Position numbers and translations under genes: made by a program. A DNA stretch of 64,000 bases from Escherichia coli (GTDB taxonomy: Bacteria; Pseudomonadota; Gammaproteobacteria; Enterobacterales; Enterobacteriaceae). How positions within the stretch are numbered: position 1 is the first letter of the stretch; each line of letters begins with the position of its first letter. Shown in pieces: positions 571 to 6,547 of this stretch. The stretch lies in assembly GCF_030013595.1 (NCBI RefSeq), contig NZ_CP122768.1. One strand, written 5' to 3'. Under the pieces are notes generated by a model. It saw nothing but the letters and a program-made list of their open reading frames with translations. It was not told the origin of the DNA and did no database searches.

Positions 571-1140
571 ATGAAACGACTCATTGTAGGCATCAGCGGT
601 GCCAGCGGCGCGATTTATGGCGTGCGCTTATTACAGGTTCTGCGCGATGTCGCAGATGTTGAAACGCATTTGGTGATGAGCCAGGCCGCGCGCCAGACCT
701 TATCCCTCGAAACGGATTTTTCCCTGCGCGAAGTGCAGGCATTAGCCGATGTGACGCACGATGCGCGCGATATTGCTGCCAGCATTTCTTCCGGTTCTTT
801 CCAGACACTGGGGATGGTGATTTTACCCTGTTCAATCAAAACCCTGTCCGGCATTGTCCATAGCTATACTGATGGCTTACTGACCCGTGCGGCAGATGTT
901 GTGCTGAAAGAGCGTCGCCCGCTGGTGCTCTGCGTGCGTGAAACACCATTGCACTTAGGCCATCTGCGTTTAATGACGCAGGCAGCAGAAATCGGTGCGG
1001 TGATTATGCCTCCCGTTCCGGCGTTTTATCATCGCCCGCAATCCCTTGATGATGTGATAAATCAGACGGTTAACCGTGTACTCGATCAATTCGCCATAAC
1101 GCTTCCTGAAGATCTCTTTGCCCGCTGGCAGGGCGCATAA
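571..1140 (+). CDS. ubiX: flavin prenyltransferase UbiX (189 aa)
   Basis: ORF 571..1140; N-terminal MKRLIVGISGASGAIYG flavoprotein motif; synteny after purF. Confidence 0.92.
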   Translation: MKRLIVGISGASGAIYGVRLLQVLRDVADVETHLVMSQAARQTLSLETDFSLREVQALADVTHDARDIAASISSGSFQTLGMVILPCSIKTLSGIVHSYTDGLLTRAADVVLKERRPLVLCVRETPLHLGHLRLMTQAAEIGAVIMPPVPAFYHRPQSLDDVINQTVNRVLDQFAITLPEDLFARWQGA

Positions 1141-1321
1141 CTCCGCTGTTGCCCTGTTTCAGGGCAATTTTGCAACCGCGATCAAATCCTCGACATTTTG
1201 TTTCTGCCATTCAATCGAAACGCTGCGATTCAACCGCTATACCTGCTATCTTCAACTTCAGGACAATAATGCAACGTCTTATTAACATATTTAACGTTGA
1301 ATGTTACTGTTGTCGTCAAGA

Positions 1322-1337
1322 TGGCATAAGACCTGCA
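1322..1337 (+). promoter_or_regulatory. candidate sigma54 (-24/-12) promoter upstream of argT: TGGCAT-N5-CTGCA
   Basis: GG and GC dinucleotides at the consensus spacing of TGGCAC-N5-TTGCA, about 70 bp upstream of the argT ATG; argT is known to be nitrogen (NtrC/sigma54) regulated. Confidence 0.45.
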
Positions 1338-1405
1338 TGAAAGAGCCTGCAAACACACAACACAATACACAACATAAAAAAGCCATTTTCACTTGAGGGT
1401 TATGT

Positions 1406-2188
1406 ATGAAGAAGTCGATTCTCGCTCTGTCTTTGTTAGTCGGTCTCTCCGCAGCGGCTTCCAGCTATGCGGCGCTACCGGAGACGGTACGTATCGGAAC
1501 CGATACCACCTATGCGCCGTTCTCATCGAAAGATGCCAAAGGTGACTTTGTTGGCTTTGATATCGATCTCGGTAACGAGATGTGCAAACGGATGCAGGTG
1601 AAATGTACCTGGGTTGCCAGTGACTTTGACGCGCTGATCCCCTCACTGAAAGCGAAAAAAATCGACGCCATTATTTCGTCGCTTTCCATTACCGATAAAC
1701 GTCAGCAGGAGATTGCCTTCTCCGACAAGCTGTACGCCGCAGATTCTCGTTTGATTGCCGCCAAAGGTTCGCCGATTCAGCCAACGCTGGATTCACTGAA
1801 AGGTAAACATGTGGGTGTGCTGCAGGGATCAACCCAGGAAGCTTACGCTAACGAGACCTGGCGTAGCAAAGGTGTGGATGTGGTGGCCTATGCCAACCAG
1901 GATTTGGTCTATTCCGATCTGGCTGCAGGACGTCTGGATGCTGCGTTACAAGATGAAGTTGCTGCCAGCGAAGGATTCCTCAAGCAACCAGCCGGCAAAG
2001 AGTTCGCTTTTGCTGGCTCATCAGTGAAAGACAAAAAATACTTCGGTGACGGCACCGGTGTAGGGCTACGTAAAGATGATGCGGAACTGACGGCTGCCTT
2101 CAATAAGGCGCTTGGCGAGCTGCGTCAGGACGGCACCTACGACAAGATGGCGAAAAAGTATTTTGACTTTAATGTCTACGGTGACTGA
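1406..2188 (+). CDS. argT: lysine/arginine/ornithine-binding periplasmic protein (260 aa)
   Basis: ORF 1406..2188; signal peptide [22 protein letters not shown]; close paralog of the downstream hisJ product; synteny. Confidence 0.93.
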
Positions 2189-2408
2189 TACGTCGCAGGG
2201 AAGCTGTACCTGATGGAATGATCATCATGGTGCACGCCAGGTTTGTTGCACTATCGTGGTGCATTGAAATGCATACTTAAGCATTTTTAATGAAAAATAA
2301 TACGTCTAACGGGGCGGGATATTTTGCCTTGATGGTCAATTTTATGGCACGATAAGTGTAACAAACCTGTAAATATTCCCTATAAAAAGACTGTCAGTTG
2401 AGGACATT

Positions 2409-3191
2409 ATGAAAAAACTGGTGCTATCGCTCTCTCTGGTTCTGGCCTTCTCCAGCGCAACTGCGGCATTTGCTGCGATTCCGCAAAACATCCGCATCGG
2501 TACCGACCCGACCTATGCGCCATTTGAATCAAAAAATTCACAAGGCGAACTGGTTGGCTTCGATATCGATCTGGCGAAGGAGTTGTGCAAGCGCATCAAT
2601 ACGCAATGTACGTTTGTCGAAAACCCACTGGATGCGTTAATCCCGTCCTTAAAAGCGAAGAAGATTGACGCCATCATGTCATCGCTTTCCATTACGGAAA
2701 AACGTCAGCAAGAAATTGCCTTCACCGACAAACTGTACGCTGCCGATTCTCGTCTGGTGGTGGCGAAAAATTCCAACATTCAGCCGACAGTCGAGTCGCT
2801 GAAAGGCAAACGGGTAGGCGTATTGCAGGGCACCACCCAGGAGACGTTCGGTAACGAACACTGGGCACCAAAAGGCATTGAAATCGTCTCTTATCAGGGG
2901 CAGGACAACATTTATTCTGACCTGACTGCCGGACGTATTGATGCCGCGTTCCAGGATGAGGTCGCTGCCAGCGAAGGTTTCCTCAAACAACCCGTCGGTA
3001 AAGATTACAAATTCGGTGGCCCGTCTGTTAAAGATGAAAAACTGTTTGGCGTAGGGACCGGCATGGGCCTGCGTAAAGAAGATAACGAACTGCGCGAGGC
3101 ACTGAACAAAGCCTTTGCCGAAATGCGCGCTGACGGTACTTACGAGAAATTAGCGAAAAAGTACTTCGATTTTGATGTTTATGGTGGTTAA
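2409..3191 (+). CDS. hisJ: histidine-binding periplasmic protein (260 aa)
   Basis: ORF 2409..3191; signal peptide; same length as and highly similar to ArgT; followed by hisQMP. Confidence 0.93.
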
Positions 3192-3215
3192 TCGCCATCG
3201 GTGAAAGAAAGTCCG

Positions 3216-3239
3216 CTCCCTTCGGGTAACCGGAGGGAG
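3216..3239 (+). promoter_or_regulatory. intercistronic stem-loop between hisJ and hisQ (10-bp stem with one G-U pair, GTAA loop, no T-run)
   Basis: CTCCCTTCGG-GTAA-CCGGAGGGAG inverted repeat read directly; the position fits an mRNA-stabilising or differential-expression structure between the binding-protein gene and the permease genes. Confidence 0.4.
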
Positions 3240-3280
3240 ACAAGAGGCGGTAATTCACCACACACGACAGGACAGGCAGC

Positions 3281-3967
3281 ATGTTGTATGGGTTTTCAGG
3301 TGTTATTTTACAGGGTGCGCTCGTCACGCTGGAGCTGGCTATCAGCTCTGTAGTGCTCGCTGTAATCATCGGTTTAATTGGCGCTGGCGGTAAGCTCTCG
3401 CAAAATCGGCTTTCGGGGCTGATTTTCGAAGGCTACACCACGCTGATTCGAGGCGTGCCGGACTTGGTGTTGATGCTGCTGATTTTCTACGGTTTGCAGA
3501 TTGCACTAAACACGGTGACGGAGGCGATGGGCGTCGGGCAGATTGATATTGATCCAATGGTCGCAGGTATTATTACTCTCGGTTTTATCTACGGTGCTTA
3601 TTTTACCGAAACGTTCCGTGGTGCTTTTATGGCAGTGCCGAAAGGACATATAGAGGCGGCGACGGCGTTCGGTTTTACTCGTGGGCAAGTGTTTCGGCGG
3701 ATCATGTTTCCGGCGATGATGCGTTACGCCCTGCCAGGCATTGGCAACAACTGGCAGGTGATCCTCAAATCTACCGCACTCGTTTCGTTACTCGGCCTGG
3801 AAGATGTGGTCAAAGCCACGCAGCTGGCAGGCAAAAGTACCTGGGAACCGTTCTATTTCGCCATCGTCTGTGGCGTGATTTACCTGGTTTTCACCACTGT
3901 TTCCAATGGTGTGCTGCTGTTCCTTGAGCGCCGCTACTCCGTGGGTGTGAAGAGGGCTGACCTGTGA
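3281..3967 (+). CDS. hisQ: histidine ABC transporter permease (228 aa)
   Basis: ORF 3281..3967; polytopic membrane protein; synteny hisJQMP. Confidence 0.92.
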   Translation: MLYGFSGVILQGALVTLELAISSVVLAVIIGLIGAGGKLSQNRLSGLIFEGYTTLIRGVPDLVLMLLIFYGLQIALNTVTEAMGVGQIDIDPMVAGIITLGFIYGAYFTETFRGAFMAVPKGHIEAATAFGFTRGQVFRRIMFPAMMRYALPGIGNNWQVILKSTALVSLLGLEDVVKATQLAGKSTWEPFYFAIVCGVIYLVFTTVSNGVLLFLERRYSVGVKRADL

Positions 3968-4680
3968 TCGAAATCTTACATGAATACTGGAAACCGCTGC
4001 TGTGGACCGACGGTTATCGCTTTACTGGTGTGGCGATCACCCTATGGCTGCTGATTTTGTCGGTAGTGATAGGCGGAATTCTGGCGCTGTTTCTGGCGAT
4101 TGGTCGCGTCTCAAGTAATAAATACATCCAGTTTCCAATCTGGTTATTTACCTATATTTTTCGCGGTACGCCGCTGTATGTTCAGTTGCTGGTGTTCTAT
4201 TCTGGCATGTATACGCTGGAGATTGTTAAGGGGACCGAGTTCCTTAACGCCTTTTTTCGCAGTGGCCTGAACTGTACCGTGCTGGCGCTGACGCTTAACA
4301 CCTGTGCTTACACCACCGAGATTTTTGCCGGAGCGATCCGTTCAGTGCCGCATGGGGAAATCGAAGCCGCCAGAGCCTATGGCTTCTCGACCTTTAAAAT
4401 GTATCGCTGCATTATTTTGCCATCGGCGCTGCGTATTGCGTTACCGGCCTACAGCAACGAAGTGATCCTGATGCTGCACTCTACTGCGCTGGCTTTCACC
4501 GCTACTGTGCCGGATCTGCTGAAAATAGCCCGCGATATTAACGCCGCCACGTATCAACCTTTTACCGCCTTCGGCATTGCCGCGGTGCTCTATTTAATCA
4601 TCTCTTATGTCCTGATCAGCCTCTTTCGCAGAGCGGAAAAACGCTGGTTGCAGCATGTGAAACCTTCTTCAACGCACTGA
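3964..4680 (+). CDS. hisM: histidine ABC transporter permease (238 aa)
   Basis: ORF 3964..4680; start overlaps the hisQ stop by 4 bp (translational coupling); membrane protein. Confidence 0.92.
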
Positions 4681-4687
4681 GAATACG

Positions 4688-5461
4688 ATGTCCGAGAATA
4701 AATTAAACGTTATCGATTTGCACAAACGCTACGGCGAACACGAAGTGCTGAAAGGGGTCTCACTGCAAGCGAATGCCGGAGATGTCATAAGCATCATCGG
4801 ATCGTCGGGATCGGGGAAAAGTACCTTTCTGCGCTGCATTAACTTCCTCGAAAAACCGAGTGAAGGATCGATCGTGGTCAATGGCCAGACGATCAATCTG
4901 GTGCGCGACAAAGACGGTCAACTCAAAGTCGCCGATAAAAATCAGCTGCGCTTACTGCGCACACGCCTGACGATGGTATTCCAGCACTTCAATCTCTGGA
5001 GCCATATGACGGTGCTGGAAAACGTCATGGAAGCGCCGATTCAGGTGTTGGGCCTGAGCAAGCAGGAAGCGCGCGAGCGGGCGGTGAAGTATCTGGCAAA
5101 AGTTGGGATAGACGAACGTGCGCAGGGTAAATATCCGGTGCATCTTTCCGGCGGTCAACAACAGCGTGTTTCTATCGCGCGGGCGCTGGCGATGGAACCG
5201 GAAGTTTTACTGTTTGATGAACCTACTTCGGCGCTCGATCCTGAACTGGTAGGCGAAGTGTTGCGTATTATGCAGCAACTGGCAGAAGAGGGGAAAACGA
5301 TGGTGGTGGTGACCCACGAAATGGGCTTTGCTCGCCATGTTTCTACTCACGTCATTTTCCTCCATCAGGGGAAAATAGAAGAAGAGGGCGCGCCAGAACA
5401 GTTATTCGGTAACCCGCAAAGTCCTCGTCTGCAACAGTTCCTTAAAGGTTCGCTGAAATAA
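4688..5461 (+). CDS. hisP: histidine ABC transporter ATP-binding protein (257 aa)
   Basis: ORF 4688..5461; Walker [13 protein letters not shown] signature LSGGQQQR, Walker [12 protein letters not shown]. Confidence 0.95.
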
Positions 5462-5467
5462 TTTCCT

Positions 5468-5499
5468 CTCCGGTGGCTAACGCTGCCGGAGTATTTCAT
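5468..5499 (+). terminator. possible terminator after hisP (CTCCGG...CCGGAG stem, weak T-tract)
   Basis: Inverted repeat 5468-5473/5486-5491 followed by TATTTCAT. Confidence 0.35.
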
Positions 5500-5656
5500 G
5501 GGGAATTTGCGAGTCCGCTTCCGCTGAAATGTAAAAGTTGCAGTCCGCTAAAAATACTTCTGAATTCGCTGTCCAAAGATAAAAACTGCCTGCTGCATTG
5601 GGTGTAAATCGTGGTTATTGTCGCGTCATCTTAAATTTGAGGGGTGACGGAACGCC

Positions 5657-6547
5657 ATGACAATATCGACAACTTCCACGCCGCATGATGCGGTATTTAA
5701 ATCTTTTTTACGCCATCCAGACACCGCGCGGGATTTTATTGATATTCATCTTCCCGCGCCGCTGCGCAAACTGTGTGATTTAACAACGCTTAAACTGGAA
5801 CCAAACAGTTTTATTGATGAAGACCTGCGGCAATATTATTCCGACCTCTTGTGGTCTGTGAAAACGCAGGAGGGAGCGGGTTATATTTATGTAGTGATAG
5901 AGCACCAAAGTAAGCCGGAAGAATTAATGGCTTTTCGCATGATGCGCTATTCCATTGCGGCGATGCAAAACCATCTTGATGCAGGCTATAAAGAGCTTCC
6001 ATTGGTGATCCCGATGCTGTTTTATCATGGTTGCAGAAGTCCTTATCCTTATTCACTCTGCTGGCTTGATGAATTTGCCGAGCCTGCGATTGCCCGCAAA
6101 ATTTATTCATCGGCTTTTCCGCTGGTGGATATTACCGTGGTGCCGGATGACGAGATTATGCAACATCGCAAAATGGCGCTGTTGGAGTTAATTCAGAAAC
6201 ATATTCGTCAGCGCGATCTGTTGGGATTAGTCGACCAAATTGTTTCGCTGCTAGTTACAGGGAACACTAATGACAGACAGCTAAAAGCCCTGTTTAATTA
6301 CGTATTACAAACGGGGGATGCCCAGCGTTTCCGTGCATTTATTGGTGAGATAGCGGAACGCGCACCACAAGAAAAGGAGAAACTGATGACCATTGCTGAC
6401 AGATTACGTGAAGAAGGCGCAATGCAGGGCAAACACGAAGAAGCTCTGCGTATTGCTCAGGAGATGCTGGAAAAAGGATTTGACCACGAAGTCATCCTGA
6501 CGCTGACCCGACTTTCACCAGACGATCTTATCGCGCAAAGCCACTAA
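5657..6547 (+). CDS. rpnB: Rpn-family recombination-promoting nuclease / transposase-like PD-(D/E)XK protein (296 aa)
   Basis: ORF 5657..6547; translation recognised as YfcI; N-terminal DAVFKSFL... region typical of the Rpn/YhgA-like family. Confidence 0.85.

Follow-up and report, generated by a model that had tools for sequence, protein, structure and literature searches.

The region analyzed here is, with a probability that we put at about 0.9, the canonical E. coli argT–hisJQMP locus, which encodes two periplasmic binding proteins and one translocator. It lies in a stretch of 64,000 nucleotides of E. coli DNA (contig NZ_CP122768.1; hereafter the window, numbered from its first letter). The layout of this locus and the nitrogen-regulated sigma-54 promoter at argT are already known and well studied; what we add concerns mainly the control of the genes, which are arranged as follows:

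1406–2188, plus strand: argT, lysine/arginine/ornithine-binding periplasmic protein, 260 aa with a 22-aa signal peptide (RefSeq annotation)
2409–3191, plus strand: hisJ, histidine-binding periplasmic protein, 260 aa (RefSeq annotation)
3281–3967, 3964–4680, and 4688–5461, plus strand: hisQ, hisM, and hisP, two permease subunits and the ATPase, common to both binding proteins
5468–5491, plus strand: hairpin 3' of hisP, the likely operon terminator (fold of 5462–5500, −17.7 kcal/mol)

The gene set for a polar-amino-acid ABC importer, comprising a pair of secreted class-3 binding proteins, a pair of permease subunits, and the ATPase, is complete, with equivalog or subfamily models scoring above their cutoffs for ArgT (NCBIfam equivalog NF011586, 582.8 bits versus a cutoff of 440), HisJ (NCBIfam equivalog NF011965, 597.8 bits versus 459; PDB matches 1HSL/1HPB), and HisQ, HisM, and HisP (all NCBIfam scores above cutoff). 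HisP carries the Walker A motif GSSGSGKS, the signature LSGGQ, and the Walker B motif VLLFDE. The chains of the LAO-binding protein in the PDB align with ArgT from residue 23 onward, which indicates a signal peptide of 22 aa. The window matches an E. coli chromosome at 100% identity; of 5426 complete genomes, 5425 contain the argT–hisJQMP segment, and the gene order ubiX–argT–hisJ–hisQ–hisM–hisP was found at all of the loci compared from other species (80/80). K-12 MG1655 has essentially the same sequence (b2310–b2306): the intergenic regions are identical at 271/271, 225/226, and 94/95 bases, and the differences, namely A2197 (T in K-12), T3212 (C in K-12), and a few coding changes, all fall outside the motifs described here. 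Because of this match, the ChIP-seq, gSELEX, and GcvB data obtained for K-12 apply directly. An Rfam scan of positions 1100–5700 (E ≤ 1), which included the hisJ–hisQ spacer, matched no family, so that neither the spacers nor the hairpin are covered by any known family of riboswitches, leaders, or sRNAs.

The earlier note on this DNA described argT and hisJ as tandem paralogs, and the pairwise alignment agrees: both ORFs encode 260 aa, the peptide stretch quoted in that note occurs in both proteins, and BLASTP aligned the two without gaps at 163 identical residues out of 236 (69%; E = 4e-129). The accompanying description, “near-identical over long stretches,” suits the proteins but not the DNA, which has a nucleotide identity of 68.5%. 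At identical codons, the third positions agree in 51% of cases, and no identical run exceeds 14 nt; on these values, a recent gene conversion event involving the two genes was rejected.

As had also been stated, hisQ, hisM, and hisP lie 3' of hisJ alone. The deduction drawn from this, that the upstream paralog “must use” the same permease, arrives at the experimentally correct outcome, but the gene order does not force it because artQMP is present elsewhere in E. coli. Docking of both binding proteins on the same HisQM is stated in PMC6640053, according to which HisJ and ArgT are 70% identical and both associate with HisQMP2 (citing Kerppola 1991 and Ames 2001), and is mirrored by the RefSeq product names in K-12, where HisQ, HisM, and HisP are subunits of the lysine/arginine/ornithine and histidine transporters. 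ArgT and HisJ are old tandem paralogs, of which ArgT binds lysine, arginine, and ornithine and HisJ binds histidine and, weakly, arginine, and each hands its ligand to a single HisQ–HisM–HisP2 ABC translocator. The artPIQM–artJ system is similar in that ArtI and ArtJ are thought to share ArtQMP2, like ArgT and HisJ with HisQMP2; ArgT and HisJ match the ArtI/ArtJ models at E values of about 1e-52.

Two features upstream of argT bear on its transcription:

1149–1167, plus strand: ubiX terminator-like hairpin, TTGCCCTG-TTT-CAGGGCAA followed by TTTT (fold, −13.2 kcal/mol)
1321–1337, plus strand: argT sigma-54 promoter, ATGGCATAAGACCTGCA, with GG at −24 and GC at −12

Candidate sigma-54 promoters were judged by the presence of GG at −24 and GC at −12 at fixed spacing (TGGCAC-N5-TTGCW) and were scored with a position weight matrix built from 103 K-12 ChIP sites, for which real sites range from 9.6 to 20.1 bits. 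The −24/−12 element that the earlier note had seen before argT, TGGCATAAGACCTGCA (TGGCAT-AAGAC-CTGCA), is an exact match at 1322–1337 and scored 13.0 bits, within the range of real sites. Transcription is predicted to start 19 bp 3' of the motif centre, at a distance of 58 nt from the ATG. The identical 17-mer is sigma-54 ChIP-seq site OS22 of K-12 (FAT 12; EcoCyc status “predicted”), and its GG/GC core is invariant in 81/81 Enterobacteriaceae species, whereas the flanking bases vary. An in vitro gSELEX peak of the RpoN holoenzyme falls within the ubiX/argT spacer, and argT is described as sigma-54/NtrC dependent from older work (PMC6640053). In a glnK mutant, expression of argTp–lacZ rises 3.2-fold at the native locus and still 2.4-fold when the fusion is moved to the lac locus. 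No sigma-54-dependent mapped start for E. coli argT was found in the literature examined, the EcoCyc entry being a prediction only.

No NtrC-consensus site (three mismatches or fewer) was found upstream of argT in Escherichia, and the NtrC ChIP-seq peak there is weak (5.4-fold). Relative to argTp, there is a weak dyad at 1150–1166, and strong NtrC sites occur only at 2218–2263, approximately 0.9 kb downstream. The weak dyad is the ubiX hairpin itself (TGC-N11-GCA, about −190 from the argT start, six mismatches to the NtrC consensus), which belongs to a block conserved across the 81 species. Klebsiella and Raoultella have NtrC-consensus sites at this same position, −190 from the argT start; in E. 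coli, the dyad may act as an NtrC site.

The spacer between argT and hisJ contains the following elements:

2218–2263, no strand assigned: NtrC enhancer before hisJ, with a strong site, TGCACTATCGTGGTGCA, at 2247–2263 and a weaker one, ATGATCATCATGGTGCA, at 2218–2234
2264–2291, plus strand: hisJ sigma-70 promoter, TTGAAA-16-TTTAAT, overlapped by an ARG-box-like pair at 2270–2304
2344–2360, plus strand: sigma-54-like element before hisJ, ATGGCACGATAAGTGTA, with TGGCAC conserved and the −12 box GTGTA in Escherichia

In a consensus scan, TGCACTATCGTGGTGCA has one mismatch of 14 and ATGATCATCATGGTGCA has four, and the enhancer includes a GCAC-N7-GTGC match. NtrC ChIP-seq gave a 23.7-fold peak before hisJ versus 5.4-fold at argT, the former at K-12 positions 2424941–2425021, which correspond to 2198–2278 of the window by our own coordinate conversion. 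NtrC-consensus sites precede hisJ in 75/81 species (0.01 expected per shuffled spacer) and argT in 32/81; those before hisJ have their centres near −116, −136, and −165 relative to the sigma-54-like element. The genes hisJQMP are also listed as NtrC-regulated on the basis of expression data. The proposal of separate nitrogen control for the upstream copy is not borne out in that wording, as both the stronger NtrC peak and the commoner consensus sites are those before hisJ.

What sets hisJQMP apart is a sigma-70 promoter with literature-stated repression by ArgR (PMC6640053); the RpoD gSELEX study gives identical hexamers and spacing for these genes. The resemblance of the overlapping pair to ARG boxes is weak, with 3 + 3 mismatches of 20, and the window contains three such pairs versus 1.85 expected by chance. 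The sigma-54-like element scored 9.8 bits in Escherichia, near the lower limit for real sites, with GT replacing GC at −12, and 15.6 to 16.5 bits in Citrobacter and Franconibacter. Its TGGCAC is found in about 79/81 species and TGC at −14 to −12 in 27/81. The K-12 sigma-54 ChIP-seq tables and supplements, comprising both the high- and the low-stringency lists, hold no entry for hisJ. Comparison of the 81 species shows that the argT sigma-54 promoter is invariant and suggests that the one at hisJ is decaying in several lineages, Escherichia included.

How nitrogen control is distributed over the locus depends on how these elements are read. It is highly improbable that TGGCAT-N5-CTGCA at argT is a chance likeness and that argT has a standard sigma-70 promoter instead. 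The degenerate pattern TGGCAY-N5-YTGCA, with two matches in 64 kb versus 0.26 expected from shuffles, is only mildly improbable (at least two matches occurred in 4 of 100 shuffles), and EcoCyc lists the promoter as predicted. Yet both matches are published in vivo K-12 sigma-54 sites (argT OS22 and arnT IS28), and while the pattern statistic alone is modest, the weight for the argT promoter is carried by the conservation of its core against variable flanks and by ChIP-seq. Binding of the RpoN holoenzyme in vitro and the response of argTp to Ntr signaling argue in the same direction. A sigma-70 consensus scan of 1100–3400 also returned no promoter; the scan accepts only A as the second base of the −10 hexamer and, for that reason, missed the published hisJ promoter as well, so that its negative result is uninformative.

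We lean, by a narrow preference, toward the view that nitrogen control belongs to the whole locus, with the hisJ-proximal NtrC enhancer as the main Ntr input, hisJQMP responding either by read-through that starts at argTp or by means of a weak sigma-54 element of its own, and sigma-70/ArgR control as the special feature of hisJ. The difference in peak height and in the frequency of NtrC-consensus sites, the high-scoring hisJ element of several genera, the expression data, and the treatment of argT–hisJQMP as one operon in published papers all favor this view. Against it stand the low score of the Escherichia element, its GT at −12, and its absence from the sigma-54 ChIP-seq lists, as well as the division made in PMC6640053, which gives sigma-54/NtrC for argT and sigma-70/ArgR for hisJQMP. 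A rather doubtful variant is that the hisJ sigma-54 promoter has decayed in Escherichia while the adjoining NtrC enhancer was kept and put to new use: the argT sigma-54 promoter could be activated from approximately 0.9 kb downstream, the adjoining sigma-70 promoter of hisJ could be shut off, by analogy with NtrC at glnAp1, or both. Nitrogen induction of hisJQMP would then come mainly by read-through from argTp. The variant extends to an Escherichia-specific inverted repeat (2238–2252/2355–2369), which could be contained in the read-through transcript only and so be a marker of that RNA. Activation of argTp by a downstream enhancer is weakened by the argTp–lacZ fusion at the lac locus, which retains 2.4-fold of the 3.2-fold native response (fragment boundaries not given).

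The tandem promoters glnAp1 and glnAp2 of glnALG belong to the Ntr system. The hisJ region resembles them in that its NtrC sites, centred near −116 and −145 from the predicted start of the sigma-54-like element, overlap or abut a sigma-70 promoter that is followed approximately 55 bp downstream by a −24/−12 element. Unlike glnAp2, the −24/−12 element at hisJ is degenerate in Escherichia and has no detected sigma-54 occupancy.

A further layer of control, which the earlier note missed, is exerted by the sRNA GcvB, through pairing with the argT leader and a reported repression of hisQ through the hisJ–hisQ spacer. Two leader regions are concerned:

1348–1405, plus strand: argT 5' leader, 58 nt from the predicted start, with the CA-rich GcvB R1 target at 1348–1373 and the RBS GAGGG at 1397–1401
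3246–3285, plus strand: hisQ leader and start region, with CA-rich CACCACACACGACAGGACAGG, a reported GcvB R1 target

Duplexes were computed with the R1 region of GcvB only, full-length GcvB giving meaninglessly long duplexes with long targets. Positions 1348–1373 pair with GcvB nt 63–92 over 26 bp at −36.8 kcal/mol, about 4 sd beyond random (mean −20.0, sd 3.9), and the argT leader is unstructured (median z of +1.0 over 81 species). That argT is an R1 target is supported by RIL-seq, CLASH, MAPS, and TRIC-seq. The hisQ duplex, at −23.7 kcal/mol, is within the random range, so that the link between GcvB and hisQ rests on the published reporter assay, in which GcvB represses hisQ through R1 in a hisJ–hisQ fusion (Miyakoshi et al. 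2021). A conserved region lies just upstream of the hisQ ATG. The E. coli locus gltI–sroC–gltJKL, likewise for a polar-amino-acid ABC system, is comparable, as gltI is a GcvB target and a structured RNA lies 3' of the binding-protein gene, as here. Unlike gltI–sroC, the hisJ–hisQ spacer has no Rfam match, and no stable sRNA from it is reported in the literature examined.

The structured element in this spacer is a single hairpin:

3216–3239, plus strand: hisJ–hisQ intercistronic hairpin, 10-bp GC-rich stem, GUAA loop, without a U-tract

The hairpin proposed from the letters is indeed there, with the stem formed by 3216–3225 and 3230–3239 and a fold energy of −19.9 kcal/mol. The spacer folds with z = −3.4 relative to dinucleotide shuffles; over 81 species, the median z is −2.36, with six above −1, and hairpins of unrelated sequence occupy the same position in each of the 26 loci that were folded (26/26). 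A REP element was taken to be a palindrome of the GCCGGATG or GCCTGATG ... CATCCGGC type, usually paired, and the E. coli hairpin is not one, since its spacer contains no REP-like motif. Salmonella and Citrobacter do have such motifs, in 15 loci whose spacers measure 144 to 196 nt, and REP pairs replace the hairpin in Salmonella and the Citrobacter freundii group. Identity as an intrinsic terminator was likewise rejected: the stem is followed by ACAAGAGGCGG, which is no U-tract, and a terminator scan made no call.

Work on REP elements in Salmonella provides a precedent for a role of the hairpin in hisJ versus hisQMP expression. A contribution to producing binding protein in excess over permease, as the earlier note had suggested, is plausible by this analogy and because a hairpin was present in every locus folded. 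No E. coli experiments on the hairpin were found, including in a literature search for hisJ and Term-seq. We consider it unlikely that the hairpin is instead an intrinsic or partial terminator, that is, an attenuator that lowers hisQMP transcription rather than a barrier to decay. The hairpin is strong, GC-rich, and immediately 3' of hisJ, comparable hairpins occur in several genera, and transcription attenuation has been reported at BIME elements, all of which would suit an attenuator. Weighing against it are the lacking U-tract and terminator call, and the fact that the 89-bp hisJ–hisQ spacer contains no separate promoter for hisQMP, so that full termination would leave the locus without a transporter.

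The argT–hisJQMP locus of Salmonella enterica (LAO/histidine permease; control regions argTr and dhuA) is the system that G. Ames and colleagues made classical. It is like that of E. coli in gene order, in having two 260-aa binding proteins, and in their common HisQMP2. The argT element TGGCATAAGACCTGCA also occurs in the loci of subsp. arizonae and diarizonae, and an NtrC site precedes hisJ in S. enterica too, with a perfect consensus, TGCACCATTTTGGTGCA, in subsp. diarizonae. The hisJ–hisQ spacer differs, being 187 to 188 nt with a REP pair in Salmonella and 95 nt with a single non-REP hairpin in E. coli. In addition, the sigma-54-like element of Salmonella hisJ keeps GC at −12 (ATGGCACGATAGCCGCA, 10.9 bits), whereas Escherichia has GTGTA (9.8 bits).

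Taken together, these features point to the following scheme, in which the gene identities, the binding of sigma-54 at argT and of NtrC, the sigma-70 promoter, and targeting by GcvB come from the present analysis or the cited K-12 data. Under nitrogen limitation, NtrC would activate the argT promoter. As there is no intrinsic terminator 3' of argT, read-through into hisJQMP is possible. The genes hisJQMP have a control region of their own, in which two NtrC sites (2218–2263) abut the sigma-70 promoter (2264–2291) reported to be repressed by ArgR, with the sigma-54-like element (2344–2360) apparently having lost the GC at −12 in Escherichia; glnA-like switching at hisJ is what we infer from this arrangement. 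When amino acids are plentiful, base pairing of GcvB R1 with two leaders, the CA-rich one of argT and that of hisQ, reduces post-transcriptionally the amounts of binding protein and permease made. The function proposed for the hisJ–hisQ hairpin is most likely that of a block to 3'-to-5' decay, perhaps also acting in part on transcription; the hisJ message would thereby outlast the hisQMP message, which would help to keep the binding protein in excess.

The argT–hisJQMP locus is among the founding models for ABC transporters; it helped to establish that two binding proteins can share a membrane complex, it advanced studies of Ntr and sigma-54, and work on it in Salmonella helped to discover REP elements. 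As a locus, its copy in this E. coli window adds nothing new to that picture, and our additions are minor details of how its regulation evolved: nitrogen control extends beyond argT, control of the locus includes a GcvB layer, and hairpins 3' of hisJ recur from genus to genus despite turnover of their sequence or of the REP insertion in their place.

The segment at window positions 1141–3300, with the RefSeq genes purF, ubiX, argT, hisJ, hisQ, hisM, hisP, and rpnB, matches E. coli strain HCP5S3_I2 with 100% identity, and 5425 of the 5426 complete E. coli genomes carry it. The order ubiX–argT–hisJ–hisQ–hisM–hisP is kept in 80/80 other Enterobacteriaceae species retrieved. Because the intergenic regions almost exactly match those of K-12 MG1655 (identical bases: ubiX–argT, 271/271; argT–hisJ, 225/226; hisJ–hisQ, 94/95), experiments in K-12 can be transferred to window coordinates (window = 2427219 − U00096.2 position). 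The published center of the argT sigma-54 motif (2425890) thus falls at 1329, the midpoint of 1321–1337. The sigma-54 site in arnT lies at 52816 rather than at the 56895 predicted from K-12, that is, approximately 4 kb nearer argT, which implies that this strain and K-12 differ by an insertion or deletion at some point between hisP and arnT.

Features of the argT–hisJ region and the second sigma-54 match (window coordinates)
1406–2188, argT, 260 amino acids
2218–2234, weaker NtrC-type site, also beneath the 23.7-fold NtrC peak
2247–2263, TGCACTATCGTGGTGCA, NtrC-consensus site beneath that peak, one mismatch to TGCACCA-N3-TGGTGCA
2264–2291, TTGAAA-16-TTTAAT, hisJ sigma-70 promoter immediately 3′ of the strong NtrC site
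2344–2360, ATGGCACGATAAGTGTA, sigma-54-like element about 55 bp downstream of the hisJ sigma-70 promoter
2409–3191, hisJ, 260 amino acids
52808–52823, minus strand, CTGGCATGGAGCCTGCA, second exact TGGCAY-N5-YTGCA match, inside arnT

The observation made on argT–hisJQMP in the earlier note is accurate, and its main interpretation is textbook knowledge and already known. ArgT and HisJ, described there as tandem paralogs alike over long stretches, align without gaps with 163 of 236 residues identical, and the ORF positions place hisQMP downstream of hisJ only. Each binding protein passes the curated cutoff of its own NCBIfam equivalog model and falls short of the other's; HisQ, HisM, and HisP also exceed their curated cutoffs, and HisP carries the Walker A, signature, and Walker B motifs. 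Alignment to the solved structures of LAO-binding protein and HisJ begins at residue 23, implying a 22-residue signal peptide in both binding proteins. At the DNA level, the two genes share 68.5% nucleotide identity, with a longest identical run of 14 nt and 51% third-position identity at identical codons, so that the long shared peptide stretches reflect protein constraint. The last two values rule out recent gene conversion and, judging from the sequences, the duplication is old.

The −24/−12 element proposed before argT (TGGCAT-N5-CTGCA) is present as an exact match (TGGCATAAGACCTGCA, 1322–1337). The degenerate pattern matches twice in the window (0.26 expected), and each match has been published as an in vivo sigma-54 site of K-12: ATGGCATAAGACCTGCA upstream of argT is ChIP-seq site OS22 (fold-above-threshold 12), whose predicted start lies 58 nt ahead of the argT ATG (window 1348), and the arnT match is intragenic site IS28, which is upstream of arnE and in the sense orientation. 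In vitro, RpoN holoenzyme likewise picks out the ubiX/argT spacer, and an argTp–lacZ fusion, reporting on this promoter, responds to loss of GlnK. With a weight matrix built from 103 other K-12 ChIP sites, the argT site scores 13.0 bits (real-site range, 9.6–20.1). Its TGGCAY-N5-NTGC core is conserved in 81/81 species (this locus and the 80 others), the spacer bases being variable. EcoCyc lists the promoter as “predicted,” and no mapped rpoN-dependent argT start in E. coli was found in the accessible literature.

The top weight-matrix match in the window is ATGGCACTGAATATGCT (63926–63942, plus strand, 16.1 bits), whose sequence is that of published intragenic site IS27 (yfaY); further matches lie at 48261 (plus, 15.6 bits) and 43932 (minus, 14.8 bits). 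Upstream of argT, block TGCAACCGCGATCAAATCCTCGACATT (1171–1197), directly 3′ of the ubiX terminator hairpin, is nearly invariant across the 81 species and matched none of the NtrC, ARG-box, and promoter consensuses tried. A second conserved, AT-rich block, TGCAACGTCTTATTAACATATTTAACG (1270–1296, about −65 relative to the argT start), is a possible IHF-type bending site.

The proposal that argT is under separate nitrogen control does not stand in that form, since the stronger NtrC peak and the conserved sites lie before hisJ. NtrC ChIP-seq of nitrogen-starved K-12 gave two peaks at the locus, one of 5.4-fold over the argT promoter itself (window 1278–1358) and one of 23.7-fold at hisJQMP (2198–2278). 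Counted at ≤3 mismatches to the consensus, NtrC sites precede hisJ in 75/81 species (0.01 expected per shuffled spacer) and argT in 32/81, with none before argT in the Escherichia, Citrobacter, or Salmonella loci scanned.

The hisJ promoter hexamers, TTGAAA and TTTAAT, are those published for the constitutive sigma-70 hisJQMP promoter, which is reported to be repressed by ArgR (PMC6640053); overlapping it is an ARG-box-like pair, spaced by 21 bp, that is a weak match. The control-region layout resembles that of glnAp1/glnAp2, the tandem glnALG promoters. TGGCAC of the sigma-54-like element occurs in ~79 of 81 species, 63–67 nt from the hisJ ATG. Its −12 box has the canonical form in Citrobacter, Franconibacter, and others (15.6–16.5 bits) and reads GTGTA in 7/7 Escherichia sequences (9.8 bits), so this downstream sigma-54 promoter looks weakened in Escherichia; the sigma-54 ChIP-seq study has no hisJ entry in its main tables or its supplements. 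Nitrogen induction of hisJQMP may then proceed via read-through from argTp, since a terminator scan found none 3′ of argT, or via residual activity of the weak site.

A terminator-like GGCCCGG...CCGGGCC hairpin directly follows argT in Klebsiella, Raoultella, Pluralibacter, and Franconibacter (loci L038, L046, L049, L062, and L065) and is missing in Escherichia, Citrobacter, and Salmonella; the extent of argT–hisJ read-through may thus vary between genera. The argT–hisJ spacer (2186–2411) also holds an Escherichia-specific inverted repeat, CAGGTTTGTTGCACT/AGTGTAACAAACCTG (2238–2252/2355–2369), which can be lengthened to about 22 nt if one bulge is allowed, makes the spacer fold much more strongly than shuffled sequence (z = −5.96), and pairs the sigma-54-like element before hisJ with the left half of the NtrC site. 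E. albertii has the repeat, Citrobacter and Salmonella do not, and both arms would occur together only in a read-through transcript from argTp.

The small RNA GcvB is a regulatory layer missing from the earlier note. From the predicted start, the argT leader TGCAAACACACAACACAATACACAACA (1348–1374) can form 26 nearly continuous base pairs over 1348–1373 with GcvB nt 63–92, at −36.8 kcal/mol (random 80-nt mean −20.0, SD 3.9). argT is an established target of the GU-rich R1 region, and hisQ is repressed through R1 in a hisJ–hisQ fusion assay (Miyakoshi et al. 2021); a proximity-ligation preprint also places GcvB on argT. Because the estimated energy at hisQ (−23.7 kcal/mol) is unremarkable, support for that link comes from the published assay.

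The hairpin previously noted between hisJ and hisQ (3216–3239) was borne out by folding, 3216–3225 pairing with 3230–3239 around a GUAA loop (−19.9 kcal/mol; spacer z = −3.4). It has no U-tract and no terminator-scan call, which argues against an intrinsic terminator, and no REP motif, which excludes a REP element; Rfam gave no match, and a literature search returned no E. coli experiment on it. A strong GC-rich hairpin occurs in this spacer in 26/26 loci folded, with unlike sequences: the Enterobacter group, for example, has arms CCCCTCCCG/CGGGAGGGG and Klebsiella has GCCATTGCGTGCG/CGCGCGCAATGGT, whereas 15 Salmonella and Citrobacter loci (Salmonella and the C. freundii and C. amalonaticus groups; L008–L011, L013–L019, L022, L024, L025, and L042) have REP/BIME motifs instead, in spacers of 144–196 nt. 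Other genera have one short hairpin at this place, and that of Citrobacter sp. R56 (L012), CTCCCTCCTGC/GCGGGAGGGAG, is also of the short type, its stem being related to that of E. coli. Over 81 species, the median spacer z was −2.36 (55/81 below −2), and that of the argT leader, as a control, was +1.0. That a hairpin keeps recurring here with a changing sequence points to a structural role. The Salmonella REP work of Stern, Prossnitz, and Ames (1988) reportedly offers a model for a barrier to 3′-to-5′ decay. By analogy, the likeliest role of the hairpin would be such a barrier, favoring the hisJ message over that of hisQMP.
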